Part shown: one piece after another, positions 4,165-40,472 of the stretch
Position numbering within the stretch: position 1 is the stretch's first letter
How the letters are laid out: the number at the start of each line of letters is the position of its first letter
NCBI GenBank assembly: GCA_015492435.1
Contig: WGFB01000009.1
Span: 1-63,429, forward strand
Origin: Gammaproteobacteria bacterium
GTDB lineage: Bacteria > Pseudomonadota > Gammaproteobacteria > SZUA-140
DNA length: 63,429 nt
Reading direction: 5' to 3'
Position numbers and translations under genes: made by a program
The notes under the pieces: model-generated
Told to the model about the DNA's origin: nothing
The model's database searches: none
The model's input: the letters and a program-made list of their open reading frames with translations, nothing else

Positions 4165-4318
4165 ACCCGACAGTTGCATGAATGCGTGTGACGACCCCAG
4201 GCGTTGGCGTCGCACCAGGTTTTATCCTGGCGGAAGGTACAAGATACAAGATTCAAGATACAAAAGGCTGCCTCACTTGTATCTTGTACCTTGAACCTTG
4301 TACCTTTCACAATCCCAG
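4165..4318 (+). repeat. Composite repeat family C, copy 1
   Basis: AACCCGACAGTTGCAT + GTGACGAC..GGCGTTGGCGTCGCACCAGG + 4x AAG(G/A)T(A/T)C ... 4x TTG(T/A)A(T/C)C + TTTCACAATCCCA. Confidence 0.85.
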
Positions 4319-4407
4319 TCCGCAATCCTAACCAGGATGGCGGGCCGGGTTGTGGACGCAAGCCCCTCTCTTGTATCTTGTAGCCTTGCATCAACCGCGG
4401 ACGGGCC

Positions 4408-5877
4408 ATGACCTACAAAGACCTGCGCGATTTCATTCGCCAACTGGAAAAACTGGGAGAACTCAAGCGCATCACCGCGGAAGTGGATCCCCGCCTGGAG
4501 ATGACGGAGATCTGCGACCGCACACTGCGCCGCCACGGTCCCGCCCTGCTGTTCGAGAACCCCAAGGGGCATGACATCCCCGTCCTGGGCAACCTGTTCG
4601 GCACCCCCCACCGGGTGGCGCTGGGAATGGGCGAGGAATCCGTGGAGGCCCTGCGCGAGGTGGGCAAATTGCTGGCCTATCTCAAGGAGCCCGATCCCCC
4701 CAAGGGGATCAGAGACGCGTGGGACAAGCTGCCCGTGCTCCGGCAGGTCATGAATATGTCCCCCAAGGTGCTCGGCCGCGCCCCCTGCCAGGAAGTGGTG
4801 GTGGAGGGCGAGGAGGTGGACCTGGGCAGGATCCCCATACAGACCTGCTGGCCCGGGGACGCCGCGCCCCTCATCACCTGGGCGCTGGTGGTCACCAAGG
4901 GGCCGCGCAAGGCGCGGCAGAATCTCGGCATCTACCGCCAGCAGGTCATCGGCCGCAACAAGGTCATCATGCGCTGGCTGTCCCACCGCGGCGGGGCGCT
5001 GGACTTCCGCGACTGGCAACAGGCCCACCCCGGCAAGCCCTTTCCCGTCGCCGTGGCCCTGGGGGCCGACCCCGCCACCATTCTCGGCGCCGTGACCCCC
5101 GTCCCGGACACCCTCTCCGAATATGCCTTCGCGGCCCTGTTGCGGGGCGCCAAGACGGAGGTGACCCAGTGCATGGGGCTGGACCTGCAGGTGCCCGCCC
5201 ATGCCGAATTCATCCTGGAAGGCCACATCGCGCCGGGCGAGGAGGCCCCGGAGGGCCCCTTCGGCGACCATACGGGCTATTACAACGAGGTGGACACCTT
5301 CCCGGTGTTCACCATCGAGCGCATCACCCACCGCAGGCAACCCATCTACCACAGCACCTACACGGGCCGCCCGCCGGACGAGCCGGCGGTGCTGGGTGTG
5401 GCCCTCAACGAGGTCTTCATCCCCATCCTGCAGAAACAGTTCCCGGAGATCTGCGACTTCTATCTCCCCCCCGAGGGCTGTTCCTACCGCCTGGCGTGCA
5501 TCAGTATCAGGAAACAGTACCCGGGGCACGCCAAGCGCATCATGTTCGGCCTGTGGTCCTTCCTGCGCCAGTTCATGTACACCAAGTTCATCATCGTCAC
5601 CGACGACGACGTGGACATCCGCAACTGGCAGGATGTCATCTGGGCCATGACCACGCGCATGGACCCCGTGCGCGACACCACCCTGGTGGAGAACACGCCC
5701 ATCGACTACCTGGATTTCGCCTCGCCCGTCTCCGGGCTGGGCGGCAAGATGGGCTTCGACGCCACCAACAAGTGGCCGGGGGAGACCCAGCGCGAATGGG
5801 GCCGCCCCATCGCCATGAGCCGGGAGATCATCCAGCGCGTGGATGCCTTGTGGGACGAACTGGGTATTGATGATTGA
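4408..5877 (+). CDS. ubiD: 4-hydroxy-3-polyprenylbenzoate decarboxylase
   Basis: [10 protein letters not shown] start; [28 protein letters not shown] motifs. Confidence 0.95.
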
Positions 5878-6019
5878 GCGAAGAGGACCGTCAGCCGATA
5901 ACGGGTAAAGAGCGCTTGAAATCTCCGCCACTACGCCGGATCCGGGGATCCTTCACTTCCAGGGAAAGAGGCGGGATGAGGAAAAACATTCGTGGGTAAC
6001 CAGCGATTGAGCCAACACC

Positions 6020-7210
6020 ATGCTGTGGTGGTCGAAAAAAGAACAGCCTGACCTCAAGACGGCGCTGGTGCTGCCGGGCGGCGGGGCGCGTGGCGCCTAC
6101 CAGGTGGGGGTGCTGCGCGCCATCGCCCATCTCCTGCCCAAGGACGCCCCCACCCCCTTCCCCATCATCACCGGCACCTCGGCCGGCTCCATCAATGCCA
6201 CGGCCCTGGCCATCCATGCCGAACATTTCCGCCGCGGGGTGCTGCTCATCAGCCGGGTGTGGGGCAATTTTCACGTCGACCAGGTCTTCCGCTCCGATTC
6301 CCTGGGACTCATGCGCACCGGGGCGCACTGGCTGACGGCCCTGATGGTCGGCGGGCTGGGCAAACGCAATCCCGTATCCCTGCTGGACCGTGCGCCCCTG
6401 GTGCCCCTGCTGCAACGCTACCTGCCCTGTAACAGGATCCAGGACGCCATCGATTCCGGCGCGCTGCACGCCCTGGGCATCACGGCCAACAGCTACGACA
6501 CCGGTCATTCGGTGACCTTCTTCCAGGGCGTCGATGCCCTGGAGCCCTGGGACCGGCACCGGAGGGTGGGCTATCCCGCGCGCATCACCATCGACCATCT
6601 CATGGCCTCGTCGGCCATCCCCTTCATGTTCTCGGCGGTCAAGATCGGCAATGAATACTTTGGTGACGGTTCCATGCGCCAGATCGCCCCCCTCAGCCCG
6701 GCGGTGCATCTGGGCGCCAACAAGATCCTGGTGGTGGGCATCCGCAAACGCCAGACCGGTCCCGAGGACTATCGCAACCGCAACGGCTACCCTACCCTGG
6801 CGGAGATCGCGGGCAACATCCTGGACAGCATTTTTCTCGACAGCCTGGATACGGACCTGGAGCGCCTGCAGCGCATCAACAAGACCATCAGCCTGATTCC
6901 CGACCGGCGCCTCGAACAGGGCGGCGTCACCCTGCGCCCCCTCGACGTGCTGAGAATCTCGCCCAGCCAGAGCATCGACAAGATCGCCGAGCGCTATGTG
7001 CACCTGCTGCCCAAGCCCCTCATCTACCTGCTGCGGGGGGTGGGCGCCATGGGCGGGCATGGCGCGACCCTGATCAGCTATCTGCTGTTCGAGAAGCAGT
7101 TCTGCCGCGAATTGATGGCCCTGGGATTCCGCGACGCCATGGCCCGGCGGGAGGACATCGTCCAGTTCCTGGAGCTGGAGGAGCCCGGCGCCAGCCAGGC
7201 CTCTCCATAA
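6020..7210 (+). CDS. Patatin-like phospholipase
   Basis: GGGARG loop, GTSAG nucleophile motif, DG(S) catalytic Asp motif. Confidence 0.9.
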   Translation: MLWWSKKEQPDLKTALVLPGGGARGAYQVGVLRAIAHLLPKDAPTPFPIITGTSAGSINATALAIHAEHFRRGVLLISRVWGNFHVDQVFRSDSLGLMRTGAHWLTALMVGGLGKRNPVSLLDRAPLVPLLQRYLPCNRIQDAIDSGALHALGITANSYDTGHSVTFFQGVDALEPWDRHRRVGYPARITIDHLMASSAIPFMFSAVKIGNEYFGDGSMRQIAPLSPAVHLGANKILVVGIRKRQTGPEDYRNRNGYPTLAEIAGNILDSIFLDSLDTDLERLQRINKTISLIPDRRLEQGGVTLRPLDVLRISPSQSIDKIAERYVHLLPKPLIYLLRGVGAMGGHGATLISYLLFEKQFCRELMALGFRDAMARREDIVQFLELEEPGASQASP

Positions 7211-7246
7211 CCTGCATTTCTTGCTTGGAGGCGGTCGGAATAACCC

Positions 7247-7624
7247 TCAATCCTTGGGTACCACCTCGAAGGGCAGGACCTGGGCCCTGGACGCGGGTGT
7301 TTCCTGGCGGGAGGCGGCCGCCAACTGGGCCGAGGTGTTGGCGTGGAGGGCGCTCAACAGGCCGTTTTCCCCGTAAACGGAGTTCCACATTTTCTTGTAG
7401 ATATGGATCATGGACTGGGTGGGATTGCCGCAGTGCTTTCTTTCCATGTCCACGCGCCACTGCAGGCCGGTGAGCCGGTGCTGCATGGGCTTGGGCGCCT
7501 TGGCGATCTCAGCCTGGAGCACCTTTTTACGCTGGATCTCGAAGGCCTCGGGGTTGGTCTCGGCCAGTTTCTTCCACGCATCGAAATTGAAACGCGATTT
7601 TTCTTTCCGTCGTCTGAGCGTCAT
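7247..7624 (-). CDS. DUF3135-like protein
   Basis: FDAWKKLAETNPEAFE...RLTGLQWRVD pattern recalled for DUF3135; GAGG upstream of ATG. Confidence 0.7.
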   Translation of the reverse strand: MTLRRRKEKSRFNFDAWKKLAETNPEAFEIQRKKVLQAEIAKAPKPMQHRLTGLQWRVDMERKHCGNPTQSMIHIYKKMWNSVYGENGLLSALHANTSAQLAAASRQETPASRAQVLPFEVVPKD

Positions 7625-7849
7625 GGGTCAACCTCACTTTCGCTATATATTCAGGTCGCATTTGAACAAATGCCATTGAATTATAACATAAATTCCATGG
7701 GAATTGCGACAGGATCATGCTCCCGAGGCTATTTCCGCCAGTCCGGGCCGGCTCAAGACGAAATACCGCAGGCAGCGATGCGGGAAGGGGCGCATGCTGT
7801 TAGACTGGCCTCAGAATTCTGATATATGGAGAACAGAGAGAATCGACCG

Positions 7850-8098
7850 ATGAGCATTCCCATCAAAGCCAAGAACGTTGGGTCACCTGACCCAGAGCTG
7901 AAGACCTCCCCCATCATGGAGGGAACGGATTACAGCGCCGAAGATCTCGCCCAGGAGGCCGCGGAACTGCCGGTCTGTTATTTCAACAATATCGGCTACA
8001 AACACGGCACCTATGTGTGCAGCGGCAGCGGTGAACTGCTGCGCTGCGACAAGGGGATCTGGGTGCAGGTGGGGAGCTGCGACCCGGACAATCCCTGA
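7850..8098 (+). CDS. Small Cys-containing protein, DUF1496-like
   Basis: C-terminal CYFNNIGYKHGTYVC..LLRCDKGIW pattern; start placed at ATG 7850 (7826 also possible). Confidence 0.65.
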   Translation: MSIPIKAKNVGSPDPELKTSPIMEGTDYSAEDLAQEAAELPVCYFNNIGYKHGTYVCSGSGELLRCDKGIWVQVGSCDPDNP

Positions 8099-8111
8099 CG
8101 GGCAGCGCCGC

Positions 8112-9998
8112 TCAGGGGGCCGCCGATCCGTCGAAATAGGCGGGGCTCAAGCCGGCCGCGCCAGGATCGTCGTGCACATCAGGCTCTGAGGAATCCGTCC
8201 CCGTGCCGGGGCCGCGCAGGGGACGGCCCGCCATGATGTCCAGAATCTGTTCCTTGTCCAGGGTCTCGTATTCCATCAGCGCCGCCGCCATGCGATGCAG
8301 GGTGTCGATATGCTTCTTGAGGATCTTCCTGGAGACAGCATAGTTCTTCTGGATGAGCGCCTTGATCTCCGCGTCGATGGCCTCCGCCGTGCTGGCGGCC
8401 ATGCTCTTCTCGCTGTGACCCTGCCCCAGAAAGCCCGCCCCTTCCTCCTCCGCGTAGGCGAGGGGGCCGACGATGGAAGACAAGCCCCACTTCTTGACCA
8501 TGTTGGTGGCCAGTTCGGTGGCGCGCTTGATGTCGTTGCTGGCGCCGGTGGTCACTGAATCGTCCCCGTAGATCAACTCCTCCGCCACCCGGCCGCCGAA
8601 GAGGCTGGCCAGTTGGCTCTCAAGGCGGCGCTTGCTGTAGCTGACGCGGTCCTCTTCCGGGAGGTACAGGGTGACGCCCAGGGCGCGCCCGCGGGGGATG
8701 ATGCTCACCTTATGCACAGGATCGTGCTCCGGCACCGACAGGCCGACGATGGTGTGTCCCGCCTCGTGATAGGCCGTGAGACGCTTCTCCTCCTCGCTCA
8801 GCACCATGGAACGGCGCTCAGCACCCATGAGGATCTTGTCCTTGGCGTGCTCGAAGTCGGCCATGGTGACCTCTTCACGGCGCGCGCGCGCCGCGATGAG
8901 GGCTGCCTCGTTGACCAGGTTGGCAAGCTCGGCGCCCGAGAATCCCGGCGTGCCGCGCGCGATTTGGGTAATATCGATGGACTCGCCCAGGGCGATCTTG
9001 CGCAGATGCACCTTGAGTATCTGTTCCCGGCCGCGGATGTCCGGCAGGGGAATGGTGACCTGGCGGTCGAAGCGGCCGGGACGCAACAGGGCCTTGTCCA
9101 GCACGTCGGGGCGGTTGGTGGCGGCGATGACGATGATGCCCTCCGTGCCCTCGAAGCCGTCCATTTCCACCAGGAGCTGATTGAGGGTCTGCTCTCGTTC
9201 GTCGTTACCGCCCCCGATGCCGCTGCCGCGCTTGCGGCCCACGGCGTCGATCTCATCGATGAACACGATGCAGGGCGCCGCCTTCTTGGCCTCCGCAAAC
9301 AGGTCCCTGACCCGCGAGGCGCCCACGCCCACGAACATCTCCACGAAATCGGAACCGGAAATGGAGAAAAAGGGCACTTCCGCCTCGCCGGCGATGGCCT
9401 TGGCCAGCAGGGTCTTGCCCGTTCCCGGCGACCCCACCATGAGCACGCCGCGCGGGATGCGTCCGCCCACCTTGTTGAAACGCTCGGCATTGCGCAGGAA
9501 ATCCACGATCTCGGCCACTTCCTCCTTGGCCTCCTCGATGCCGGCCACGTCGGCAAAGCGCACCTTCACCTCGCCCGCCTTGAACTCACGCGACTTGGAC
9601 TTGCCGAACTTGACCGCCCCGCCGCGGCTGCCGCCCTGCATGCGCCTCATGTAATAAATCCACACGGCGATGAGCAACAGTATGGGAAACCAGGACAACA
9701 GGATCTGCGCCAGGCCGGAGCCCTTGGGCGCGGCGGTAATCCTGACATTGTGCTCGATGAGATCGCCCATCAGGCCGGGATCGTTGGGTGTGTCGGTCTT
9801 GAAGGGAACGTTGTTGGTGGTACGGCCATAGATGACACCGTCATCGATGAACACTTCCGTGACCTCGTCGTTGGCCAGCTTGTTCAGGAAGTCCGAATAG
9901 GAGATGTTGGCATTGGACTTGACCTTGACCCCCGACATCAGCAATGCCATAAACATGACACCCAGTATCACCATGCCCGCCAGGAATTTGTTGCTCAT
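8112..9998 (-). CDS. ftsH: ATP-dependent zinc metalloprotease FtsH
   Basis: Two N-terminal TM segments, Walker A GSPGTGKT, Walker [35 protein letters not shown]. Confidence 0.95.
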
Positions 9999-10261
9999 TG
10001 CATGATCCTCCTCTGGATTCGATGCGGCAATGGGAGCAAGTGGTATCCTGTTGAAATCCCGACTGATTCAGTTGGAAACCAATACAGGCAACCGGCAGAC
10101 GCAAACACCGGGATCTGCCTCCATCTGGCCAGATGCAAGCCGCTCCATCGCTTTATCTCTCAATGGAGCAAAACTCATACCAGATGGAGGCTAGCCCATA
10201 TTTCTCTCCAGGATGGCGGGCATATCGGAAAAAGGCTCCGGCAGGGGCGCCGGCCCGGTAA

Positions 10262-10296
10262 GGTGGTGCGCAGCCCTCAAGGGCCTGCGCACCACC
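10262..10296. repeat. Strong isolated hairpin
   Basis: GGTGGTGCGCAG(CCC)...(GGG)C-CTGCGCACCACC; no U-tract. Confidence 0.5.
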
Positions 10297-10352
10297 CGCC
10301 CGGTGTGCCGTGGAACTGACATTGCGGATGACTGACCCGCAAGAGGCCCTCT

Positions 10353-12026
10353 TTACACCTTGAACTGATTTACCGTCCCTTGCAGATCCACGGCCAGCTT
10401 GGCGATATCGTGGCTGGCGATCTCGGTCTGCCCCGCGCCTTCGCTCACATCGCACGATACCTCGCTGATGGAGACGATGCTGCGGTTGATCTCCTCGGAA
10501 ACCATGGTCTGCTGTTCCGCCGCGCTGGCGATCTGGGTCGTCATGTCACTGATAACCCCTACTGAGCAAAGGATTTTTTCGAGGGACTCGTTGCTGGAGG
10601 CCACATTCTCCAGGCTGTGCGCGGCCCGCTCACTGCCATGGCTCATCACACTCACCGCCTCCCGGGCACGGCCCTGCAGTTTCTCGATGGTCTGCTGGAT
10701 CTCGTCGGTGGACTCCTGGGTGCGCTGCGCCAGCGTGCGCACCTCGTCCGCCACCACGGCAAAGCCCCGCCCCTGTTCACCGGCGCGCGCGGCCTCGATG
10801 GCGGCATTCAACGCCAACAGGTTGGTCTGCTCGGCAATGTCCTTGATCACGTCCAGAACGGAACCGATGCTCTCGCTGTCACCGGCAAGCAGTTCGATCA
10901 CGCGGGAGGCATTCTCGATTTCGCCGGCCAGGGACTGTATGGAGGCAATGGCTCCGCCCACCACCTCATTGTTCTTCTCAGCTTCCTGATTGGCGTCTCC
11001 GACAGCCCGGGCCGCCTCCGACGCATTTCTCGCCACCTCGTGCATGGAGGCCGTCATCTGTGTCATGGCGGTGGCAACCTGCTCCGTTTCCCCCTTCTGG
11101 CGCTCGGCGGAGGTGCGGGACTGGGTCGTCACGGCCGACAACTCCTCCGCCGCTGAGGCCAGTTGGGTGGAGGCGGAGGCCACCTGGTGCAACACCGCCT
11201 GCATGCTGTCCATCATGAAATTGAAGTTCGCCCCCATTTCGCCCAGCTCATCCTTGCCCTCGGGCACGCGCAGGGCGAGATCCTTGTTGGTGGCGATGTC
11301 GCGTATCACCTCGTTGGTGGCGCGCAGCGAGCGCCGGATTCCCCCCGTCATCCACACGCCGAGCCCCACGCCGATCATGATACTGCCCCCGGCGATGGCC
11401 GACATGCCCACCACGGCGGCATGCTCCTCCTCTTTGACCGTGAGGATGGACTGTTCGGTGAATTTCTCCACCTCCGCCAGCAGGGCCTCGAGTTCCCCGT
11501 CCAGCTTGGCGCCCTCGCGCTCGGCCGTGGCGGCAAGTTCCTCCGCATCCGCCGCCCGGCCTGCCTCGATCAGGGCAAAAGCTTCCGCCACATGCCGGCT
11601 GTATTTCTCATGCTCCTCGCCGATGCGGTCCAGCTCGGACAAAAGACGCTGAAACTCGGTCCGGGATGCCTCCGAATGGGCCACTTCCACGCCAGCGCGC
11701 GCCACACCCATGCCCTTTTCAATCTCGGCGACGATACGCTCGTCCAATTCCGCGAAGCGCTGATGTTCCCTCCGCACCCCGTCCAGACCATCCAGTTCGG
11801 GATTCCTGACATGGCCGGCGCGCAAGGCCTTCTCCAACGCCACGGCCTGTTCCAGCTGGCCCACGGTAATCGAGGTCAGGGATTCCAGCAGGGGGATGTC
11901 CTCTTCCGCGATTTCCTTGACCTCCTCCTCGATACTCATCAACTTGGACAATCCCCAGGCCACCACCGCAATCATCAGGACGGTATTGGCCACCAGCATC
12001 AGGTTCATCTTGTGGCTGATTTTCAT
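10353..12026 (-). CDS. Methyl-accepting chemotaxis protein (TM-sensor-TM-HAMP-signalling domain)
   Basis: [37 protein letters not shown] hairpin tip; two TM segments; GGAGG RBS. Confidence 0.95.
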
Positions 12027-12146
12027 AGATGCCTCCTCTCACCCGGTTATCGCCTGATGACTCCCTCCGCCGGCGGGACAATGACAGCCTTCAGTGTCTG
12101 CCGCGGAACTCCCGGCATGCGCCGGTGCATTCCTTACTATTCTAGT

Positions 12147-12173
12147 TTATCGGCCGGCGCGCGGAATCCTAAA
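12147..12173 (-). promoter_or_regulatory. Candidate sigma-28 (FliA) promoter for the MCP
   Basis: Minus strand TTTA-N15-GCCGATAA; -10 matches consensus exactly, -35 is weak (consensus TAAA). Confidence 0.5.
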
Positions 12174-12226
12174 ACCAAGGAATTCTTTCAGCATCAACGA
12201 CCTGTGAGCGGCACACAACTTCCTTG

Positions 12227-12541
12227 TCAGTGCAGGAACAGGGGCAGCGGAATCACCAGGGAAAGCGAGGGCCGCGCATGCACGACTTCGCGATGGAGAG
12301 GGCGGTGGATTTCGTAGACCACCTCGCGCCTGACGACATGGCCCGGGGCCACGTAGCCATGGTACCCATGTTCCCAGTCGCCATGATGCCGTGGGCGCTC
12401 CACAAGGACTGGGGCATGGCGGGGCTTGACATGATGGGTCCGCTCATCCGCGCGGGCCAGGGCGGGACTCATGCCCAAAATGATGATGACCAGGGCCGCG
12501 ATGGCCGCCGTCAACCAAGAAATTGAATCTCGCGTAGTCAT
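12227..12541 (-). CDS. Small predicted secreted His/Arg-rich protein
   Basis: Signal-peptide-like N-terminus ending ALARA; His-rich mature part; GAAGGAG RBS. Confidence 0.65.
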   Translation of the reverse strand: MTTRDSISWLTAAIAALVIIILGMSPALARADERTHHVKPRHAPVLVERPRHHGDWEHGYHGYVAPGHVVRREVVYEIHRPLHREVVHARPSLSLVIPLPLFLH

Positions 12542-12661
12542 GATCCGTTCTCCTTCTCAGTGAATACTTTCAGCCGTATATCATTCTCAGCGGGAACAGA
12601 TGAATACACGCTGAATGGCGCATGAAGTCGACAAAACCCGCTGATTGCGTTAAATTACTAA

Positions 12662-12820
12662 GGAACCTCTGATTAATTCTGGACCGGATGGATGGCGAGA
12701 TGAAATGTTCCAGATCAAGGCGAAAAACGCAGGTAATCGCATGCTATTGCCAAGCTTTTCAACGCAGAGCCGGGACATTTCAGCCGCCAGACGCCGGTTC
12801 ATGAATTAATCAGAGGTTCC
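12662..12820. mobile_element. MITE family A, copy 2 (159 bp)
   Basis: TIRs GGAACCTCTGATTAATT / AATTAATCAGAGGTTCC; flanks CTAA / TTAA. Confidence 0.9.
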
Positions 12821-12843
12821 TTAATCCGGCAACAATATATGTC
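12821..12843 (+). repeat. Solo left end of element family D
   Basis: TTAATCCGGCAACAATATATGTC, matches left end of 34487-34629. Confidence 0.7.
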
Positions 12844-12905
12844 ATTCCACGCAAACCGCCCGACATCCCCGGGCGTACCATCACAGTCAACCGAGAGGAT
12901 CCGAT

Positions 12906-13718: not shown

Positions 13719-13751
13719 GTCCGTGGATTCAGGTGGAGACCAGGCGGCCGC

Positions 13752-14434: not shown

Positions 14435-14537
14435 CAGGCCTTATCCAGGGAAGGTACAAGATACAAAAGGCTGATTCCCTTGTACCTTGTATCTTTTACC
14501 TTTCACAATCCCAATACCTAATCTATTGCAATGACTG
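14435..14537 (+). repeat. Composite repeat family C, copy 2 (5'-truncated)
   Basis: CAGG..TTATCC + AAGGTAC-AAGATAC ... TTGTACC-TTGTATC-TTTTACC + TTTCACAATCCCA-N12-TTGCAATGACTG. Confidence 0.85.
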
Positions 14538-14569
14538 GGTTTATTGACGTTACCGGGACATTGATTTCC

Positions 14570-25447: not shown

Positions 25448-25530
25448 TGCGCTGTAATCCTCTTCCCCCGTCTTGAATTGATGAAGGCAAGTATACCTGA
25501 CAGTTGCGTATTTTGGTGCAAGATGCAGCA

Positions 25531-25693
25531 AACACCTCGTTTCATACGCCCTGCCGCGCGTGACGGTCCAAGCGTCGGCGTCACACCAGGCCACAAGGAA
25601 AGTACAAGATACAAAAAGCTGCTTCCGTTGTATCTTGTACCTTACATCTTGTGCCTTTCACAATCCCAGCATCCAATTTTTTGCAATGACTGC
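25531..25693 (+). repeat. Composite repeat family C, copy 3
   Basis: AACACCTCGTTTCATACGCCCT + GTGACGG..GCGTCGGCGTCACACCAGG + heptamer hairpin + TTTCACAATCCCA-N12-TTGCAATGACTG. Confidence 0.85.
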
Positions 25694-25807
25694 ATACTCA
25701 GCCCGGCCCGATTGGAACACCCTTTCCCGCCCGAGGTTATACTTTTGCGCCGGGAAGCATTATCATGGCAGCCATTTTCGGCAGCCTGAGAAAAAACTGA
25801 CATACTC

Positions 25808-30172: not shown

Positions 30173-30176
30173 CCAA

Positions 30177-31852: not shown

Positions 31853-31995
31853 GCGCGCGTCAGGGCCCATGGTACAACAGGCTCTTCCCATTACCATGTA
31901 ATCTTGTTCCTTGTATTTTTCCACCCTGAATCCAAGATCCGCCACCCTCTGCCCAAGCGGCTTTTTGCGATGATGGCACAGACTCCCGGCACGGT

Positions 31996-32024
31996 TTTAC
32001 CGTCCCTGGAAAATGGCGCATAAT
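31996..32024 (+). promoter_or_regulatory. Candidate sigma-70 promoter giving a leaderless transcript
   Basis: TTTACC-N17-CATAAT, 6 nt before ATG 32031. Confidence 0.45.
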
Positions 32025-32030
32025 GCCTCC

Positions 32031-33464
32031 ATGGGCACCGAGGTAAGCAGCAGCCGTTTTTTCAAACAGGACTTCAAAACCTACGAAAAACGGTTGCGGG
32101 AGGAAACCGCTCTACTGGGCGAGTGGTTCGCCAACAATCTCTTTGCCCGCGGGCATCCCAAGGGCGGCTTCGAACTGGAAGCCTGGCTGGTAGACGGTAA
32201 CGGGGTACCCAGCCCCGTCAACGACGCCTTTCTCGAACAGGGCAGGGACCTGCTGGTGGTCCCCGAGCTGGCCAAGTTCAACATTGAAATCAACGGCAGT
32301 CCTCTTTCCCTGGAAGGCGATGCCCTGTCCCGCATGGAGGCGGAACTGCGCGACACCTGGCGCCGCTGCAACGACATTGCCGCCGCGCTCGGCGCCTCCA
32401 TGCTGATGATCGGCACCCTGCCCACGGTGCGCGACCGCGACCTCAATCTGGAAAACATGTCCAGCATGGAGCGCTACCGGGCCCTCAATGAACAGGTACT
32501 GCGCCTGCGCAGAGGAGAACCCATCGGGCTCGACATCCAGGGCTTCCAGCATCTGCGCACGGCCCACTACGACGTCATGCTGGAAGCCGCCGCCACCTCT
32601 TTCCAGATTCACCTGCAGATCGGGCAGGAGCTGTCGGTGCGCATGTACAACGCGGCGCAGATCGTTTCCGCGCCCATCGTCGCCGCGGCGGCCAACTCGC
32701 CCTTTCTGTTCGGCAGGAACCTCTGGGATGAATCGCGCATTCCCCTGTTCGAACAGGCCATCGCCGTGGGCGGTTTCGACTCCCCCGAGTGCGGCGCCCA
32801 GCAACGCGTGAACTTCGGAGTGGAATACGTGCGGGATTCCCTCTATGAGTGTTATCTCAAGAATCAGGCCTGTTTCCCCATCCTGCTGCCGGCATGCATG
32901 GACGAAGCCACCGAGAAACTGGCTCACCTGCGCCTGCACAATGGCACCATCTGGCGCTGGAACCGTCCCCTCATCGGGGTGGATGAAGGGGGTGAGAACC
33001 ATTTGCGCATCGAGCACCGCGTGGTGCCCGCCGGCCCCACCATCCGCGACAGCTTTGCCAACGCTGCGCTGTTCTTCGGCCTGGTCTACGAACTCGGCAC
33101 CCAGGCTGTGCCGCCGGAATCCCTGCTGCCCTTCGAGGAGGCGCGGCGCAATTTCTACAATGCCGCCAGGACGGGGCTGCGCGCCAAGGTGACCTGGCTC
33201 AACGGCAAGCGTGGCGCCATCCTCGACCTGTTGCTGGACGAGTTGCTGCCCCTGGCCCGGGCGGGACTGAACAAGCTGGGCCTGGATCCGGCCGAGGGCG
33301 ACTATTACCTGGGCATCATCGAGCAACGCCTGCGCAGCGGCCAGAACGGGGCCGCCTGGCAACGGGCCTACGCGGAAAAACATCAGTGCGACATGAAGGA
33401 CCTGACGTCCGCCTACCTGGAACGCCAGGAAAGCGGCAAACCGGTGCATCAATGGACACTGTGA
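32031..33464 (+). CDS. Glutamate-cysteine ligase family 2 (GCS2)-like carboxylate-amine ligase
   Basis: GFELEAWLVD, ELAKFNIEIN, ATSFQIH, HNGTIWRWNRP, HLRIEHRVVPAGPT; start 32031 (alternative 32013). Confidence 0.8.
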   Translation: MGTEVSSSRFFKQDFKTYEKRLREETALLGEWFANNLFARGHPKGGFELEAWLVDGNGVPSPVNDAFLEQGRDLLVVPELAKFNIEINGSPLSLEGDALSRMEAELRDTWRRCNDIAAALGASMLMIGTLPTVRDRDLNLENMSSMERYRALNEQVLRLRRGEPIGLDIQGFQHLRTAHYDVMLEAAATSFQIHLQIGQELSVRMYNAAQIVSAPIVAAAANSPFLFGRNLWDESRIPLFEQAIAVGGFDSPECGAQQRVNFGVEYVRDSLYECYLKNQACFPILLPACMDEATEKLAHLRLHNGTIWRWNRPLIGVDEGGENHLRIEHRVVPAGPTIRDSFANAALFFGLVYELGTQAVPPESLLPFEEARRNFYNAARTGLRAKVTWLNGKRGAILDLLLDELLPLARAGLNKLGLDPAEGDYYLGIIEQRLRSGQNGAAWQRAYAEKHQCDMKDLTSAYLERQESGKPVHQWTL

Positions 33465-34492
33465 CCGGGCTGCCCATGCTGACCATCCTGGATGCCTTGC
33501 CCGGGGGATTTCTGAATTGCGAACCCACCCGCCTGCACACCATTCTCTCCGGCCCTACGCTCATCCACCTGGAGGGCCGGCGCTCGCCACCCGTGTTCGT
33601 CTCCATCCTGCTCCACGGCAATGAATACACGGGCCTGCTGGCGGTGCAAAAACTGCTGCGCCGCTATCAGGGGCGCGGGCTGCCGCGCGACCTGTCGATC
33701 TTCGTGGGCAACGTCGCGGCGGCGCGGTTCGGCCTGCGCCGCCTCGATCATCAACCCGACTACAACCGCATCTGGCAAGGCAACGGCACACCCGAGCATG
33801 ACGCCGTGCAACGCGTGGTCGAGGAAATGGCGCAACGCAAGGTGGTGGCCAGCATCGATATCCACAACAACACCGGCCACAATCCTCACTATGCCTGCAT
33901 CAACCGCCTCGACCACCGCTTTCTCCATCTGGCGGCCCTGTTCAACCGCACCGTGGTCTACTTCACCAAGCCGGAAGGGGTGCAGTCGGCGGCCTTCGCC
34001 CGGCTGTGCCCGGCGGTCACCCTGGAATGCGGGCGGCCGGGGGAACCGCGTGGCATCGAGCACGCCTTCCGCTATCTGGACGCCGCTCTCAACTTGTCCG
34101 AGTTTCCAGCCCACCCGGTCGTGCCGGGAGACATCGACCTGTTTCACACCGTTGCCATTGTCAAGATTCCCCGCGACATCTCCTTCGGCTTCGGCGACAC
34201 GTCCACGGATATCCGCTTCATCGAGGATCTCGACCGCCTCAATTTCTCGGAACTCCCCGCCGGCACCTGCCTGGCCCATACCGACCCCAACAAGCGCGCG
34301 CGCCTGGATGTGCGCGACGAACGGGGCGAGGAAGTCAGTAGCGCCTATTTCACTTTCGACGATCAAAGGATCTGTACCCGCACCGAAGTCATGCCCGCCA
34401 TGCTCACCCTGAACCCGCAGGTGATCCGTCAGGACTGCCTGTGCTATCTTATGGAACGCCTGCCCGTACCCGAGGCGTCTCAACATTATTAA
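33452..34492 (+). CDS. M14-family metallo-hydrolase (succinylglutamate desuccinylase/aspartoacylase-like)
   Basis: LLHGNE (HxxE), DYNR, IDIHN, TLECG; overlaps upstream ligase stop. Confidence 0.8.
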   Translation: MDTVTGLPMLTILDALPGGFLNCEPTRLHTILSGPTLIHLEGRRSPPVFVSILLHGNEYTGLLAVQKLLRRYQGRGLPRDLSIFVGNVAAARFGLRRLDHQPDYNRIWQGNGTPEHDAVQRVVEEMAQRKVVASIDIHNNTGHNPHYACINRLDHRFLHLAALFNRTVVYFTKPEGVQSAAFARLCPAVTLECGRPGEPRGIEHAFRYLDAALNLSEFPAHPVVPGDIDLFHTVAIVKIPRDISFGFGDTSTDIRFIEDLDRLNFSELPAGTCLAHTDPNKRARLDVRDERGEEVSSAYFTFDDQRICTRTEVMPAMLTLNPQVIRQDCLCYLMERLPVPEASQHY

Positions 34493-34629
34493 CACGGCAA
34501 CAATATATGTCGTGTTCAGCGCTTCAGGCCCGTGCGGGATCAAGGCGCGGCCCGCGGGGAACGCCGAGCCCGTGCGGGCCTGAGGCGCCTAACGAATTGA
34601 TTTGAAAAAGGCAGGTTGCCGGGTTAATA
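34487..34629. mobile_element. Element family D, complete copy (about 139 bp plus TA flanks; IS630/Tc1-mariner-like end structure)
   Basis: TA-TTAACACGGCAAC ... GTTGCCGGGTTAA-TA; internal hairpin GCGCTTCAGGCCCG / CGGGCCTGAGGCGC. Confidence 0.75.
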
Positions 34630-34653
34630 GTCCCGCGATTCCCGACGTACATC

Positions 34654-35787
34654 ATGGCCAGAAACACCCGCACGGAAAATCAGCTGCTGCGCCGCAAACT
34701 GGAAGACTTCATGGCGCAGGCGCGCCAGAACGAGCGCAAGCTGCGGCGCTTCCAGTCCCTGGAGCTTCATCTCATCGGGCTCCATTCACTCTATGACCTC
34801 ATCAAGGCCATACTTTACCCGGATTACGCCACTTTCAAGTGGGACATGGTCACCCTCGTGCTGCTGGACCCGGAATACGAGATTCAACGCATTCTCGAAG
34901 AAGCCCATATCGATCTGGAACAACATCCCACTCTCATGTTCGCCTCAGAACCCGCGGAACTGGAAACCCTCTATCCCCATTCCCTGTTTCCCACCCTGAG
35001 CGCCTACCGCCCGCGCCAGCATGCGCGCCTGTTCGTCCCGGGGTCGCCCCGCCCCGCCAGCGTGGCCCTGCTGCCCCTGGTGCGCCACGGCAGGCTCATC
35101 GGCAGCCTCAACATCGGCAGCCACACCGATACCCGCTTCATTAAGGGCGTACGCACGGATTTCTTCGAACACCTGGGCGGCGTGGTGGCCATCTGCCTGG
35201 AAAATGCCGTCAACCACGAACGCCTCAAACGCCAGGGCCTGACCGACACCCTCACGGCCGTCAACAACCGCCGGTTCTTCGATCAGCGCCTGGGCGAGGA
35301 AGTAGCCCACGCCATCCGTGAGCAACAGCCCCTTTCGTGCCTGCTGCTGGACATCGACCATTTCAAACAGATCAACGACCGTTACGGCCACCAGATGGGA
35401 GATCGCGTGTTGATGGAAGTGGCATCCCTGATACGCGCCCAGATGCGCGGCAACGACGTACTGGCGCGCTATGGCGGCGAGGAATTCGCGGCGCTGCTGT
35501 CTCAAACGTGCAATGCCGCGGCCATGGAAGTGGCGGAACGCATACGCGGCAGCATTGCCGCGCGCGGCTTCGGCCTGGAACGGGACGCACCCGGCTTCGG
35601 CGTCACCATTTCCATCGGCATCGCCACCCTCGATCCCGGCTCCCTGGACCAGACCCATCCCGTAAGCGGTGAGTTTCTCGTCGGACAAGCCGACAAGGCC
35701 CTCTATGACGCCAAGGCGGGGGGCAGAAACCGGGTCATTTCATCCGGCAACATGCAGTTAGACGGTGAATGGCTGGTGGCGGGCTGA
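34654..35787 (+). CDS. Diguanylate cyclase with N-terminal DUF484/GAF-like domain
   Basis: DTLT...NRR, DIDHFKQINDRYGH..GD, RGND I-site (RxxD), RYGGEEF. Confidence 0.9.
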   Translation: MARNTRTENQLLRRKLEDFMAQARQNERKLRRFQSLELHLIGLHSLYDLIKAILYPDYATFKWDMVTLVLLDPEYEIQRILEEAHIDLEQHPTLMFASEPAELETLYPHSLFPTLSAYRPRQHARLFVPGSPRPASVALLPLVRHGRLIGSLNIGSHTDTRFIKGVRTDFFEHLGGVVAICLENAVNHERLKRQGLTDTLTAVNNRRFFDQRLGEEVAHAIREQQPLSCLLLDIDHFKQINDRYGHQMGDRVLMEVASLIRAQMRGNDVLARYGGEEFAALLSQTCNAAAMEVAERIRGSIAARGFGLERDAPGFGVTISIGIATLDPGSLDQTHPVSGEFLVGQADKALYDAKAGGRNRVISSGNMQLDGEWLVAG

Positions 35788-35875
35788 GGCGCATTCGAAT
35801 TCAGGGGGAAGCGAGGGTCGATATGAGTGCCCCCGGCACCACGGCAAGGCGACCCGAACCCGTGCCGCGTGGCAG

Positions 35876-37093
35876 TCAGATGCCCGTCCAGCGCGCCAGC
35901 CGCGGCAGATCGCCCTTCAGCCCCATGGCCTGGCGGATGAGTCCCTGCTTCACCGGGCTTTCGATATTGGCCAGCCTGAGGCCCGTATTGCGCAGCAGGC
36001 GCAGGGGCAGGGAGGGCGAGCCAAAGAGACGCTTGAAACCATCCATGGCCGACATGGTCAGCAGATTGTCCCCCTTGCGCCAGCGCTCGTAGCGGCGCAG
36101 CACGCCCTGGGAATAGAAGGGCCGGTCCTGGGCCAGGGCGTCCAGCAGGACCTCGGACAAGGCGGCCGCATCGAGAAAACCGAGGTTCACTCCCTGCCCC
36201 GCCAGTGGGTGAATCATATGGGCGGCGTCCCCCACCAGGGCGCGGCGCGGGGCGATGTAGCGGGTGCTGTGCCGCAGGCGCAGGGGAAACGCGGCACGCG
36301 GCCCCGTCCCCGAAATCTCCCCCAGCCGGTACTCGAAGGCTTCGCCCAGGGCCCGGCAGAAGGCCTGGTCATCCAGAGCCAGCAGTTCGTCGGCATGACC
36401 AGGGGCGGTGGACCAGACGATGGAGCTGCGCCCGTCGCGCAGCGGGAGAAAGGCGAGGGGGCCATCGGGCATGAAACGCTGCCAGGCCGTCTCCTGATGG
36501 GGCTTGCGGGTGGCGACGGTGGCCACCACCGCCTTCTGCTCATAGGCCCAGCCCCGCGTGGCGATGCCCGCCTGCTGGCGCACCCGGGAATTGCCGCCAT
36601 CGGCGCCCACCACCAGGGCGGCGCCAATGGCGTCTTCGTCCTCGAGACGCACGCATACCTGCTCCGCCTCGTCCTCGATGGTGGTGATGCGGGCGGGACA
36701 GATCAGCTCGATGTTGTCGAAGGCCTTCATGCGCTCCAGCAAGGCGCGCTGAATGACGCGGTTCTCGATGATATGGCCCAGCCACGGCTCGCCGACGGAG
36801 GCGCAGTCGAAATGAATGGCGCCATTGCCCGTGGCGTCCCACACGTGCATCTCGTAATAGGGGCTGACCCCCAGCGCCACCATGCGCTCCCAGGCATCCA
36901 GCGCCATGAAGATCTGCTGGGAGGCGGCGGAGATGGCCGACACGCGCAGGTCCACGCTGTCCCTGGGCCAGCGGGTCTTGGGACGCTGCGCCTCGATGAC
37001 GGCCACCCGGTAACGGCTGCCGCCCAGCATGCAGGCCAGGGCGGCGCCCACCATGCCGGCGCCGACGATGACGATGTCGTAGTGGCGGCTCAT
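35876..37093 (-). CDS. ubiI: FAD-dependent ubiquinone hydroxylase (UbiI/VisC-like)
   Basis: GAGMVG, RVSAIS, ALVGDAAHMIHPLAGQGVNLG; ATGA overlap with ubiH; start at 37093. Confidence 0.85.
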   Translation of the reverse strand: MSRHYDIVIVGAGMVGAALACMLGGSRYRVAVIEAQRPKTRWPRDSVDLRVSAISAASQQIFMALDAWERMVALGVSPYYEMHVWDATGNGAIHFDCASVGEPWLGHIIENRVIQRALLERMKAFDNIELICPARITTIEDEAEQVCVRLEDEDAIGAALVVGADGGNSRVRQQAGIATRGWAYEQKAVVATVATRKPHQETAWQRFMPDGPLAFLPLRDGRSSIVWSTAPGHADELLALDDQAFCRALGEAFEYRLGEISGTGPRAAFPLRLRHSTRYIAPRRALVGDAAHMIHPLAGQGVNLGFLDAAALSEVLLDALAQDRPFYSQGVLRRYERWRKGDNLLTMSAMDGFKRLFGSPSLPLRLLRNTGLRLANIESPVKQGLIRQAMGLKGDLPRLARWTGI

Positions 37094-38337
37094 GCCCCGT
37101 CCCCGCCCGGAATGGGCAGGCCGCGCGCCAGGCGTGGCAGGCGCCCGGCCAGCCCCATGGCCTGGCGCATCATGAGCCGCTTGGCGGGCGCCACGCGGTC
37201 GAGCACCAGCAGCCCCAGGTTGCGCCCCACCACCACGGGCGGCAGGGTGGTGCTGAACAGGCGCACCAGCCCGTCGGTGAGGCGCGCCACCCTGTTCTGG
37301 TCCGCCCGCCGCCAGGCATTGTAGCGCCTCAGCACCCGCGCGGCGCCGATGTCCCCGCCGGCCAGCCGGGCCTGGGCGATCACTTCGGCCAGAACCGCCA
37401 CGTCCCGGATGCCCAGGTTGAAACCCTGCCCGGCGACGGGATGCAGGGTATGGGCGGCGTTGCCGATGAGGGCCAGGCGCGGTGTGTCCGCGGGTTCGGC
37501 CATCACCAGCGCCAGGGGATAGGCGCTGCGCCGCCCGGTCTTCCGCAGCTCGCCGAGGCGATATCCGAAACGCGCCTGGAGGCGCGCCAGAAAAGACGCG
37601 TCGTCCAGGGCCAGCAATGCCTCTTCCTCTCCCTGGTTCACGGTCCACACCAGGGAGCAGCGGTTATCGCTCATGGGCAGCATGGCCAGGGGACCGCTGT
37701 CGGTGAACCGTTCGTAGGCGACACCGCGGTGGGGGCGGCCCGGGGTGACATTGGCGATCACGGCGCACTGGCCGTAGTCCCAGCGGCGGGTGCCGATGCC
37801 CGCCAGTTCCCTCACCTGTGAACGACCGCCATCGGCGCCGACGAGCAGCCGCGCCGTGAACTGCCTTTTCCCGCCTTCCATGGCGATCTGCACGCAGGCC
37901 CGGCCGGCGTCCGTCTCCAGCCCTTCCAGCTCCGCGGGACACAGCAAATCAACGTCGTCCAGCGCCTTGAGGCGCGCGGCGAACAGCTTGCCCAGTTCGC
38001 GGTTTTCCACCACGTAACCCAGGGCGTCGTAGCCGTGGCGGGCGGCGTCCATCCTCAGCATGCCGAAGTGGCCGCGGTCCGATACGTGAATCTTCCTGAT
38101 GGGCGTCACGGAGGCGGCCAGTTCGTCCCACAGGCCCATGGCGGAAAAGATGCGGCGGCTGCCATAGGCCAGGGCGATGCTGCGGTCGTCATAACTGGGC
38201 TGGGAGGCGGCGCGCAGGGGCACGGCCTCCACGACGGCGATGCGCAGGCCGCGCCCGCCCAGGGCGCAGGCCAGGCTGGCGCCCACCATGCCGCCGCCGA
38301 CGATGATCAGGTCGTAGTCGTATTCCATTTCAGCCAT
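37090..38337 (-). CDS. ubiH: 2-octaprenyl-6-methoxyphenol hydroxylase
   Basis: GGGMVG, DDRSIAL, AYERFT..GP.A.LP, GNAAHTLHPVAGQGFNLG; follows pepP. Confidence 0.9.
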   Translation of the reverse strand: MAEMEYDYDLIIVGGGMVGASLACALGGRGLRIAVVEAVPLRAASQPSYDDRSIALAYGSRRIFSAMGLWDELAASVTPIRKIHVSDRGHFGMLRMDAARHGYDALGYVVENRELGKLFAARLKALDDVDLLCPAELEGLETDAGRACVQIAMEGGKRQFTARLLVGADGGRSQVRELAGIGTRRWDYGQCAVIANVTPGRPHRGVAYERFTDSGPLAMLPMSDNRCSLVWTVNQGEEEALLALDDASFLARLQARFGYRLGELRKTGRRSAYPLALVMAEPADTPRLALIGNAAHTLHPVAGQGFNLGIRDVAVLAEVIAQARLAGGDIGAARVLRRYNAWRRADQNRVARLTDGLVRLFSTTLPPVVVGRNLGLLVLDRVAPAKRLMMRQAMGLAGRLPRLARGLPIPGGDGA

Positions 38338-39631
38338 TCATCAAGGCCTCGATTTCCTCAACGGACTTGGGCACGTCCTTGCTGAGCACATCGCACCCAT
38401 GGCGCGTCACCAGTACATCGTCCTCGATGCGCACGCCGATGTTCCACCATTTCTTCGCCACGCCCTTGCTGCCGGCCGGGATATAGAGGCCCGGCTCCAC
38501 CGTCATCACCATGCCGGGCTCCAGCATGCGCCACGTCTCCCCCACCTTGTAGTCGCCCACGTCGTGCACATCCATGCCCAGCCAGTGCCCGGTGCGGTGC
38601 ATGAAGAAACGCCTGTAGGCGCCCTTCTTGATAAGCGTGCGCTGGTCGCCCCTGAGCAGGCCCAGCTTGCGCAGGCCACGGGTCAATACGCGCACCGCCG
38701 CCTGATGGGGGTCCATCCAGTGATTGCCCGGGCGGATCTTGTCGATGGCGGCAAGTTGCGCCTCCAGCACCAGTTCGTAGATGAGGCGTTGCGGCTCGCT
38801 GAAACGGCCATTGACCGGAAAGGTGCGGGTGATGTCGGCGGCATAACACTCCAGCTCGGCGCCCGCATCGATCAACAACAGGTCACCGTCCTGCAGCTGG
38901 GCCCTGTTGTCCGTGTAATGGAGGACGCAGGCATTGGCACCCCCGCCGACGATGGGCGGATAGGCGGTGTGCCGGCAGCCGTTGCGCATGAACACGTGAA
39001 GCAGTTCCGCCTCGATCTCATACTCCCACATGCCCGGCCTGCAGACCTGCATGGCGCGCACATGGGCCTGCGCCGAGATCTTCGCCGCGCGGCGCATGAG
39101 GGTGATCTCCTTGCGGCTCTTGAACAGGCGCATTTCGTGCAGCAGGTGTTCCAGGGACACGATCTCCCCGGGGACATGGACGCCGGCGCGGGACTTCTGA
39201 CGAATCTGTTTCAGCCACTCGGGAATCTTCTGGTCGTATTCGGGACTGCCGCCCATGGTGTAATAGACCTTTTCCCGGTTCTCCAGCAATCCCGGCAGGA
39301 TCTCGTCGATGTCCGAAATGGGAAAGGCGTCATCGGCGCCGAAAACCGTCTTGGCCCCTTCCGGGCCGTGGCGTGGCCCCGTCCACAGTTCCAGCTCGGG
39401 ATCCCGCGCCTGGCAGAAGAGGATGTAACTGCCCTGGGGCCTGCCGGGGATGAGCACCAGTACGGCCTGGGGTTCGGAGAAACCCGTCAGGTAGTAAAAA
39501 TCGCTGTCGGGGCGGTAGGGATATTCGATATCCCGGTTGCGCGTGGCGACGGGCATGGTGGGCAGGATGGCGATCCCGTCCCGCCCCATCATGTGCATCA
39601 GGCGCTTGCGGCGCCGGGCGAATTCCTTCAT
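38330..39631 (-). CDS. pepP: Xaa-Pro aminopeptidase
   Basis: DSDFYYLTGF, LLIDAG...DITRTFP, HWLGMDVHDVG, TVEPGLY, RIEDD. Confidence 0.95.
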   Translation of the reverse strand: MKEFARRRKRLMHMMGRDGIAILPTMPVATRNRDIEYPYRPDSDFYYLTGFSEPQAVLVLIPGRPQGSYILFCQARDPELELWTGPRHGPEGAKTVFGADDAFPISDIDEILPGLLENREKVYYTMGGSPEYDQKIPEWLKQIRQKSRAGVHVPGEIVSLEHLLHEMRLFKSRKEITLMRRAAKISAQAHVRAMQVCRPGMWEYEIEAELLHVFMRNGCRHTAYPPIVGGGANACVLHYTDNRAQLQDGDLLLIDAGAELECYAADITRTFPVNGRFSEPQRLIYELVLEAQLAAIDKIRPGNHWMDPHQAAVRVLTRGLRKLGLLRGDQRTLIKKGAYRRFFMHRTGHWLGMDVHDVGDYKVGETWRMLEPGMVMTVEPGLYIPAGSKGVAKKWWNIGVRIEDDVLVTRHGCDVLSKDVPKSVEEIEALMNG

Positions 39632-39632
39632 C

Positions 39633-40220
39633 TCAATGCAATACCTTGTCGTCGTTCTGCTCACGTTCCGCCTGCAACTCTTCGTGGATCAGCATGACGC
39701 CGACACGCACATATTCCGCCAACTCCATGAAGGAGGCCTCGTCGAGGTCCTCGTCCTCATCCACTTCCTCATCATCATGATAAACCCGGGAAATTTCAAT
39801 CATGTCCCTGACAATCTCCTCTACGTTGCCGGGCGCCTCCCCAGTATTCTCCAGCCCTCCCGCAGCCAGGCCATAGAGAAAACCCTTGCTCCAGTCCGCA
39901 AGCGCCTGGGTGCGCACGGACAGCGGCTGCTCGTCGTCAGGCAACAGGAGGCGGAATCCGAATTCGGCATCGCGAATCTGCAGCAGGGTTTCCTTATATA
40001 ATTGGTGCAAAATGACCTGCTCCTGACCCTGCCCGGCGTTTTCTTCCGGAACCAGTAAATGTTCCACCGGCCCCTCAAGCAGATGCCCCAGCCATGCCTC
40101 CTGACTCACTGTCCGCCGGGTGCAGATCAGGCCGCAGAGCAGCCCGTGCGCTTCCGCCGTTTCCTGGGCAAGGCCCAGGCGGCGGAAGGCAATATTGACT
40201 TGGGTATAATCCATTCTCAT
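39633..40220 (-). CDS. UPF0149 (YgfB) family protein
   Basis: AEAHGLLCG, F.LLLPDDE..L..R..AL..W..GFL.G, ELAEYVRV; upstream of pepP. Confidence 0.9.
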   Translation of the reverse strand: MRMDYTQVNIAFRRLGLAQETAEAHGLLCGLICTRRTVSQEAWLGHLLEGPVEHLLVPEENAGQGQEQVILHQLYKETLLQIRDAEFGFRLLLPDDEQPLSVRTQALADWSKGFLYGLAAGGLENTGEAPGNVEEIVRDMIEISRVYHDDEEVDEDEDLDEASFMELAEYVRVGVMLIHEELQAEREQNDDKVLH

Positions 40221-40274
40221 GGCGGGCCCGGTTCAACGCTGAACTGTTCATCATAAACCATCGTATGCGCCACG

Positions 40275-40472
40275 TTAACCCGACTGTTGCATAAATTGCG
40301 AGTGCCATGCGAGGATAACACCTTGTTTCATACGCCCTTCCGGTGGTGACGACTCCTGGCGTTGGCGTCACGCCAGGTTTTATCCAACCGCAGGCCCACA
40401 AGGAAGGCAAAAGATACAAGGTACAAGATACAAAAGGCCGCTTCCCTTGCATCTTGTACCTATCACATTCCC
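40275..40472 (+). repeat. Composite repeat family C, copy 4 (longest)
   Basis: TTAACCCGACTGTTGCAT + AACACCTTGTTTCATACGCCCT + GTGACGACTCCTGGCGTTGGCGTCACGCCAGGTTTTATCC + heptamer hairpin + TATCACATTCCCA. Confidence 0.85.

Follow-up and report, generated by a model that had tools for sequence, protein, structure and literature searches.

Repeats upstream of ubiD, dapF, gpmI and zapA in an uncultured gammaproteobacterium are very probably worn copies of a hairpin-carrying miniature transposable element with IS1380-type ends

The stretch of DNA analyzed here (hereafter, the window) is the 63,429-nucleotide contig C9 (WGFB01000009.1, assembly GCA_015492435.1) of the draft genome of an uncultured gammaproteobacterium, denoted G000 (2.12 Mb in 128 contigs, 62% G+C, 90% complete). 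Four copies of a modular repeat, family C, lie on the + strand of the window, upstream of ubiD, dapF, gpmI, and zapA, respectively. As the preliminary description proposed, they represent a single family with ordered modules, and a genome-wide search recovered the same modules in the same order; their limits could be refined to positions 4166-4317, 14439-14539, 25496-25694, and 40279-40473. Judging from their sequences, the 4 repeats are very probably decayed copies of a non-coding MITE (miniature inverted-repeat transposable element) built on the ends of an IS1380-type insertion sequence (IS) and most likely moved by an IS1380-family transposase.

Copy 3 (25496-25694) is nearly full length, with both ends present and mutated. 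Its left end (CCTGACAGTTGCGT) starts at position 25496 and is followed by the AACACCT module (25531-25552), the GTGACG hairpin (25560-25590), a hairpin of tandem heptamers (approximately 25603-25655), the 3′ module (25655-25668), and the right end (TTGCAATGACTGCA, 25681-25694). Copy 4 (40279-40473) comprises the left terminal repeat (CCCGACTGTTGCATAAATTGCG, 40279-40300) and the body, with the AACACCT module (40317-40338), the GTGACG hairpin (40346-40377), a 5′ heptamer arm (40411-40431), a short 3′ arm (approximately 40446-40459), and a degenerate 3′ module (40460-40473); its right terminal repeat is missing. Copy 1 (4166-4317) has lost the right terminal repeat and, by deletion, the AACACCT module, and retains a truncated left terminal repeat (CCCGACAGTTGCAT, 4166-4179), the GTGACG hairpin with the adjoining CCAGG (4188-4219), the heptamer hairpin (5′ arm, 4234-4261; loop, approximately 4264-4276; 3′ arm, 4276-4306), and the 3′ module CTTTCACAATCCCA (4304-4317). 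Copy 2 (14439-14539) is only the right half of the element, with heptamer arms at 14451-14464 and 14482-14495, the 3′ module at 14500-14513, and the right terminal repeat (TTGCAATGACTGGG) at 14526-14539. None of the 4 copies keeps both ends unmutated and, because all of them are damaged, neither terminal repeats nor a target duplication can be seen from the window alone. The initial statement that the repeat has no such pair thus holds for the window copies, but not for the family, intact members of which have both.

Intact copies elsewhere in G000 are approximately 220 bp long, with copy sizes ranging from 107 to 247 bp, and 12 copies are essentially full length and align end to end. Extension of all copies in the 3′ direction showed that the element runs past the 3′ module and ends with ...GTACCCAATTTTTTGCAATGACTGGG; the right end, when reverse-complemented, reads CCCAGTCATTGCAAAAAATTGG, and the 5′ end reads CCCGACAGTTGCATAAAATTGCG. 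Intact copies are bounded by imperfect 24-bp terminal inverted repeats (CCCGRCAGTTGCATAAAATTG ... CAATTTTTTGCAATGACTGGG), with the left (CCCGRCAGTTGCATAAAATTGCG) and right (CCAATTTTTTGCAATGACTGGG) ends, one of them reverse-complemented, agreeing at 18 of the first 24 positions. Both terminal repeats were found in approximately 20 paired copies. The 4 bp immediately outside the ends form an exact duplication in 8 of the 20 (TTTA, TAAA in 2 copies, GTAA, TTAC, TTCA, TACA, and ATAA) and match at 3 or more of the 4 bases in 13; one further copy is flanked by a 5-bp duplication, TAGTA. When the partners were shuffled 20,000 times, exact matches averaged 0.74 and peaked at 5, with none of the shuffles reaching the observed 8. 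The flanks of the copies are 83% A+T. The MITE carries no transposase gene, and its reading frames are not conserved from copy to copy; in the AACACCT module, a short open reading frame (ORF) of the reverse strand (MKQGVIL...) was rejected, since its frame differs among copies. Inspection by eye of both strands of the conserved 5′ part revealed no fit to sigma-70 or sigma-54 promoter spacing. Across G000, there are approximately 35 sites with the conserved 130-nt 5′ part and approximately 35 real copies with the 3′ module, the modules recurring in the order seen in the window; variants drop modules piecemeal, with the heptamer hairpin retained in every one of them.

The source of the ends came to light through relatives of G000. 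Members of the IS1380 family generate 4-5 bp target duplications and have CC ends. Sequence inside the left end found in G001, a sister species of the same genus (as is G002), led to related ends in 2 genomes of another genus. In one of these, G017, such an end opens an element of 1,629 bp (C84:151-1779), the 459-aa ORF of which scores 236.8 bits against NF033539 (IS1380 family transposase; cut-off, 180) and also matches PF13701. Its left (CCTGACAGTTGCATAAATCC) and right (CAAATTTATGCAATGATTGGG) ends agree with those of the MITE at 20 and 19 of 24 positions, respectively. In G000 itself, the start of contig C78 (C78:1-149) holds the final 37 codons of an IS1380-type transposase gene (73% identity, E = 6e-11) and, after them, ...AATTTATGCAATGATTGGG; this remnant sits at the contig edge, as would be expected had the assembler collapsed a repeated IS. 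Furthermore, genome G012 contains a separate 234-bp MITE with the same ends, a perfect TATA/TATA duplication, IS-like subterminal sequence and no heptamer hairpin; therefore, 4-bp duplications and the generation of MITEs are features of this IS group, and neither requires the hairpin. Like the IS1380-family elements IS1380, IS1247, ISEcp1, and ISPme1, family C begins with CC, matches the IS at both ends and is flanked by 4-bp duplications (5 bp in one case), but unlike them it lacks a transposase gene, and its interior, which holds the heptamer hairpin, is unrelated beyond approximately 25 bp at each end. For comparison, IS1247 is 1,672 bp long and flanked by a 5-bp direct repeat (PMC3281130, Table 2), and an IS1380-family element has been described to carry adjacent genomic DNA as "transposable modules" (PMC3281130).

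The MITE has amplified in the G000 species only, in a species-specific burst. Searched for with a tolerance of up to 3 mismatches, the pattern of its left end gave 20 matches in G000, a single one in G001 (at a contig edge) and none in the 34 other genomes of the family, and in a BLAST comparison of the whole element with 40 relatives the heptamers were the sole shared part. At the site of copy 4, G000, G001, and G002 are homologous through ...CATCATAAAC.ATC......CACGTTAA (up to ...TTAA), and the latter two diverge exactly where CCCGACTG (CCCG) begins in G000. Where copy 1 precedes ubiD in G000, the spacer of G001 is unrelated and approximately 95 nt long; G002 has a different upstream gene at this position, so it does not provide a strict empty site. 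The right junctions of the decayed copies 1 and 4 are unreadable.

We also located other assemblies of the same population by exact-protein look-up of neighboring genes. Several end, or carry runs of N, inside MITE copies, as expected because the MITE is a repeat; look-ups with ubiD, dapF, and one more protein returned no other assembly, and 2 further contigs were uninformative, one being a probable chimera across 2 MITE copies and the other containing an N-gap. In one assembly (L170; GCA_027001565.1, JALTMO010000455.1), the right flank of the copy at C103:35171-35395 is joined via the MITE to the flank of the copy at C51:35499-35745, which could mean that the assembly is chimeric across the repeat or that the 2 copies have truly recombined. 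Independently of family C, 3 of the 7 other assemblies that cover copy 3 (L164, L166, and L167) contain a palindromic insert of approximately 74 bp (CTGAATCCGTGGGTTCATGACGG...CCCTGAACCCACGGATCC) between copy 3 and gpmI, at window positions approximately 25746-25754, with a 9-bp duplication (AGGTTATAC); the window carries the empty site, and the insert is a different small element, apparently an active one.

Several observations weigh against the assignment of family C to an IS1380-derived MITE. A perfect duplication is absent from 12 of the 20 paired copies, which we attribute to decay, and around the full-length IS of G017 a target duplication is not clearly recognizable. The 90%-complete G000 draft contains no complete assembled IS with such ends: the 149-bp terminal fragment on C78 is the only trace, and a search for pairs of terminal repeats at IS distance yielded none. 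The heptamer hairpin is already inside every MITE variant seen. Finally, no presence/absence polymorphism of any copy was detected among the 3 to 7 strain-level assemblies, so there is no sign of current activity.

The most variable part of the element is the heptamer hairpin, the arms of which consist of tandem AAGRTAC and GTAYCTT heptamers; in family C they enclose a loop of 13-15 nt with no ORF. Arrays of AAGRTAC are present at approximately 80 sites in G000, approximately 30 of which comprise both arms, the AAGRTAC array invariably being the 5′ one. Among 3 sister paralogues that are 95.5%-97.6% identical outside the hairpin, the arm lengths differ, and the loop is reverse-complemented in 3 of the 15 copies examined. 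By contrast, heptamer number is unchanged for copy 4 in 5 other assemblies, for copy 3 (identical) in 7, and for the intact copy at C51:35499-35745 in the 1 assembly that spans it (L169), another contig (L171) starting inside this element 3′ of the hairpin. Across assemblies, these 3 loci show point differences only; assemblies being consensus sequences, rare heptamer variants would be missed in this comparison. Thus, arm length and loop orientation change over the spread of the family and, as far as the data show, not from cell to cell. Two other loci in G000, C14:33473-33615 and C19:2715-2864, carry one-sided arrays of 15 heptamers, each facing a partner arm of 2 units.

The hairpin is a passenger in the MITE, which some of the free hairpins predate. 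The ACAAGRTACAAGRTACAAG pattern occurs 83 times in G000, 20 in G022, 13 in G001, twice each in G002 and G011, and once in G041, and is absent from the 30 other genomes of the family, the reversed control giving no match in any genome. Heptamer arrays without MITE flanks are found in G001, G002, and G022, and a hairpin between pheS and pheT occupies orthologous sites in G000 and G001. In the ubiD leader, outside copy 1 and approximately 25 nt upstream of the start codon, a heptamer remnant, CTCTTGTATCTTGTAGCC (4368-4385, + strand; CTCTTGTATCTTGTAG), is found at the same place in G000, G001, and G002, where the rest of the spacer is unalignable; being conserved in 3 species, this heptamer predates the MITE. 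Conversely, many seemingly free hairpins of G000 share the MITE loop (AAAAGGCTGCTTCCC) or residual MITE ends, and therefore well over half of the approximately 80 heptamer sites probably owe their origin to the MITE.

The same heptamers enclose a gene in G000. Its single gene for a PF05635 protein (23S rRNA intervening-sequence protein; C23:5356-5661, 113.7 bits) lies between AGATACAAGGGAAAAGATACAAGATACAAGGGG and its complement, in a cassette with inverted AAGATAC-type arms (C23:5319-5751; L154, L156) located between rpsI and a tRNA gene. This is the only ORF-bearing version of the heptamer hairpin in the genome; the orthologous cassette of G001 has the same arms and an ORF broken by a stop codon, and the ORF is broken in G002 as well. 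We surveyed 20 PF05635 loci, each from a different gammaproteobacterial family, under a strict period-7 rule and found inverted arms of period 7 at 12 of them, compared with 0 of 300 random windows of G000. The heptamer differs per lineage, one locus having the GACAGAT of Coxiella. In G086, the heptamer of the PF05635 gene recurs at 4 extra loci, one of them a gene-less hairpin, and in G213 it is confined to the gene. At loci with AAGRTAC triplets drawn from many phyla, the purine-rich array comes first in 34 adjacent pairs, with the opposite order in 3, all at distances of at least 700 nt, and one such locus, in an Oscillospiraceae genome, also encloses a PF05635 gene (105 bits). At another PF05635 locus (L152; G017:C116:6278-6589), the gene with its inverted arms seems, by eye, to interrupt a DNA methyltransferase-like frame. 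In Coxiella burnetii, the intervening sequence (IVS) of the 23S rRNA has a 28-bp stem of tandem GACAGAT heptamers, the number of which varies between strains, contains the S23p ORF and is cut by RNase III at the first heptamer repeat (PMC4990558). The PF05635 cassette of G000 shows the same arrangement. Family C is similar in that its stem is made of tandem heptamers of variable number, identical in G000 to those enclosing the PF05635 gene, but its hairpins are gene-less, lie outside rRNA and are carried in a DDE-type MITE. The core of family C looks like the stem of a PF05635 cassette, but it falls outside that group, as there is no four-helix-bundle ORF between its arms.

These similarities raise the possibility, which we put forward tentatively and do not consider the probable outcome, that an IS1380-type MITE took up the stem of a PF05635 intervening-sequence cassette and amplified this stem some 35-50 times. 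The same observations can be read differently, with the heptamer hairpin itself as the active entity: it would derive from the PF05635 cassette, lack the gene, spread by a mechanism of its own, perhaps with the help of the four-helix-bundle protein, and be cut by RNase III in transcripts, the IS1380 ends being just one vehicle that it entered by chance. The heptamer shared between the cassette arms and the approximately 80 dispersed hairpins, the fixed polarity of the arms (34 pairs versus 3), the period-7 arms of the PF05635 loci, the extra loci of G086 and the Coxiella precedent are all in keeping with such an active hairpin. We nevertheless regard it as unlikely, because no target duplication, enzyme or movement was seen for free hairpins, several of which are orthologous between species and hence stable, and because the PF05635 ORF is broken in both sister species, the G213 heptamer does not leave its gene and many of the "free" hairpins of G000 are MITE remnants.

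A further explanation, offered in the preliminary description, is that the repeat is a structured cis-acting RNA, a leader or riboregulator in which slippage of the heptamers tunes the stem and sets the expression of the downstream gene. In its favor, RNA folding of the heptamer stems is far better than that of shuffled sequences (z-scores from −3.0 to −6.3; for the GTGACG hairpin the difference is marginal, with −0.9 to −2.0), paralogues differ in arm length and all 4 window copies are co-oriented with the next gene. The latter, however, is a consequence of most window genes being on the + strand: the arrangement described for the window is real there but is not a property of the family. Genes were called with a simple, crude GC3-based caller covering 86% of the genome, and orientation was assessed for the 26 oriented copies with both neighboring genes within 400 bp. 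Tandem gaps hold 15 of them, of which 7 follow the direction of transcription and 8 run against it; gene starts are faced by the 3′ end in 17 of 26 cases (p = 0.17) and by the 5′ end in 18. Ten copies are in divergent gaps and 1 in a convergent gap (background: 198 divergent and 140 convergent of 986), an enrichment in promoter-bearing gaps that would suit a leader RNA as well; the element prefers AT-rich promoter DNA, without polarity toward genes. The genes downstream of the copies are functionally unrelated, and modules are lost at random among copies. Furthermore, G.U pairs are no more common than A.C mismatches in 33 hairpins, whether these are oriented by transcription (38 versus 52) or by the MITE strand (34 versus 51), and examination of the GTGACG hairpin by eye uncovered few changes and no compensatory ones, the copies being too similar for covariation to be seen. 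With heptamer number also constant across assemblies at 3 loci, a slippage-tunable cis-acting element is highly improbable.

The absence of any recognizable RNA family, in turn, was borne out: no match of the copies to Rfam 15, searched at gathering and at E-value thresholds, exceeds 31 bits against gathering values of approximately 100, the best matches of 2 copies being to miRNA-hairpin models (26-31 bits versus 98-100). The only RNA matched in the window is 6S RNA (41270-41454, 85.7 bits), located directly downstream of zapA, its usual place. Further along the window, at 43029-43383 and 47878-48273, long tandem repeats of the AAGAAAAAAGCC type lie in 2 genes on opposite strands and encode Lys/Ala-rich, histone H1-like tails.

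Y1 elements produce no target duplications and have subterminal hairpins in place of terminal inverted repeats. The remaining idea, a hairpin-ended repeat moved by an HUH/Y1 transposase of the REP/BIME-RAYT (repetitive extragenic palindromic sequence/bacterial interspersed mosaic element and its associated tyrosine transposase) or IS200/IS605 type, is hardly credible: the element does hold 2 hairpins and G000 does encode one Y1_Tnp fragment (C84:3-140, 35.6 bits), but the ends carry 24-bp terminal inverted repeats and 4-bp duplications and match an IS1380 DDE element, and the fragment, which is at a contig edge, has neither a family C copy nor a heptamer array in its vicinity, C84 carrying a single element, approximately 30 kb away. 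Family C does resemble REP/BIME-RAYT systems as a set of dispersed intergenic palindromes in mosaics, but those depend on Y1 enzymes and have neither terminal inverted repeats nor duplications. The suggestion of a mobile repeat was hence right in kind and wrong in type; in place of a RAYT or TnpA(Y1) gene flanked by copies, G000 has this unrelated fragment. Likewise, the repeat had been advanced as a candidate for an undescribed system, and both of the findings named beforehand as contradicting that were obtained: orientation is random, and the ends match those of a known IS.

Family C, although a new family of MITEs, is instead known in kind: an ordinary mobile element that carries unusual cargo, and not a regulatory system. 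As with other bacterial MITEs, such as Correia, RUP, and Nezha, it is small, has terminal inverted repeats and a target duplication, is intergenic, exists in many decayed copies, hosts other MITEs nested inside it and breaks assemblies; unlike bacterial MITEs in general, its mosaics lose modules independently, and it contains an internal microsatellite-like hairpin that varies in length and flips. A palindromic MITE of approximately 190 bp (GGAACCTCTGATCAATTC...GAATTGATCAGAGGTTCC) is nested inside the family C copies at C34:3468-3885 and C13:39042-39437 and adjoins several other copies. We know of no described IS1380-derived MITE with a heptamer-hairpin core (ISfinder was not searched). The TAACTGA repeats of marine Beggiatoaceae are comparable as intergenic tandem heptamers with a patchy phylogenetic distribution, some of them near start codons, but they are direct repeats (169 direct sets versus one inverted, nearly all forward and just upstream of start codons; PMC4679880), whereas the family C arrays are inverted pairs in random orientation.

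Collectively, these results are consistent with a scenario in which an IS1380-type DDE transposase would bind both terminal repeats, move or copy the element and leave a 4-bp duplication. The copies have come to lie mostly in AT-rich intergenic DNA that bears promoters, with no preferred orientation, and those of the window are old insertions, immobile by now through the loss of one end or of internal modules. Changes in arm length and loop flips may have arisen by replication slippage and by template switching or recombination between the arms. Capture of flanking DNA would be the simplest route by which the hairpin came to lie between the IS ends. No host function of the element is indicated, and an effect on ubiD, dapF, gpmI, or zapA would be incidental, if there is any. 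By analogy with the Coxiella IVS, the long double-stranded stem could serve as a cleavage site for RNase III or as a structure at transcript ends.

The repeats upstream of ubiD, dapF, gpmI, and zapA would accordingly be transposon debris and not a shared control element, with the IS1380 family named as the source of the ends of a MITE that breaks metagenome assemblies of this uncultured gammaproteobacterium. They also provide a concrete case of a microsatellite-like hairpin inside a transposon. If stem capture did take place, heptamer hairpins without an enzyme of their own would have spread by hitch-hiking in a DDE transposon, each landing would put a long RNase III-type stem, variable and flippable, into a promoter or leader, and bacterial heptamer repeats, rRNA intervening sequences and MITE bursts would be linked. 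Because G000 has the hairpin heptamers around its own PF05635 gene as well, the locus may serve as a natural experiment on the activity in mRNA, and the spread, of intervening-sequence-type heptamer hairpins.

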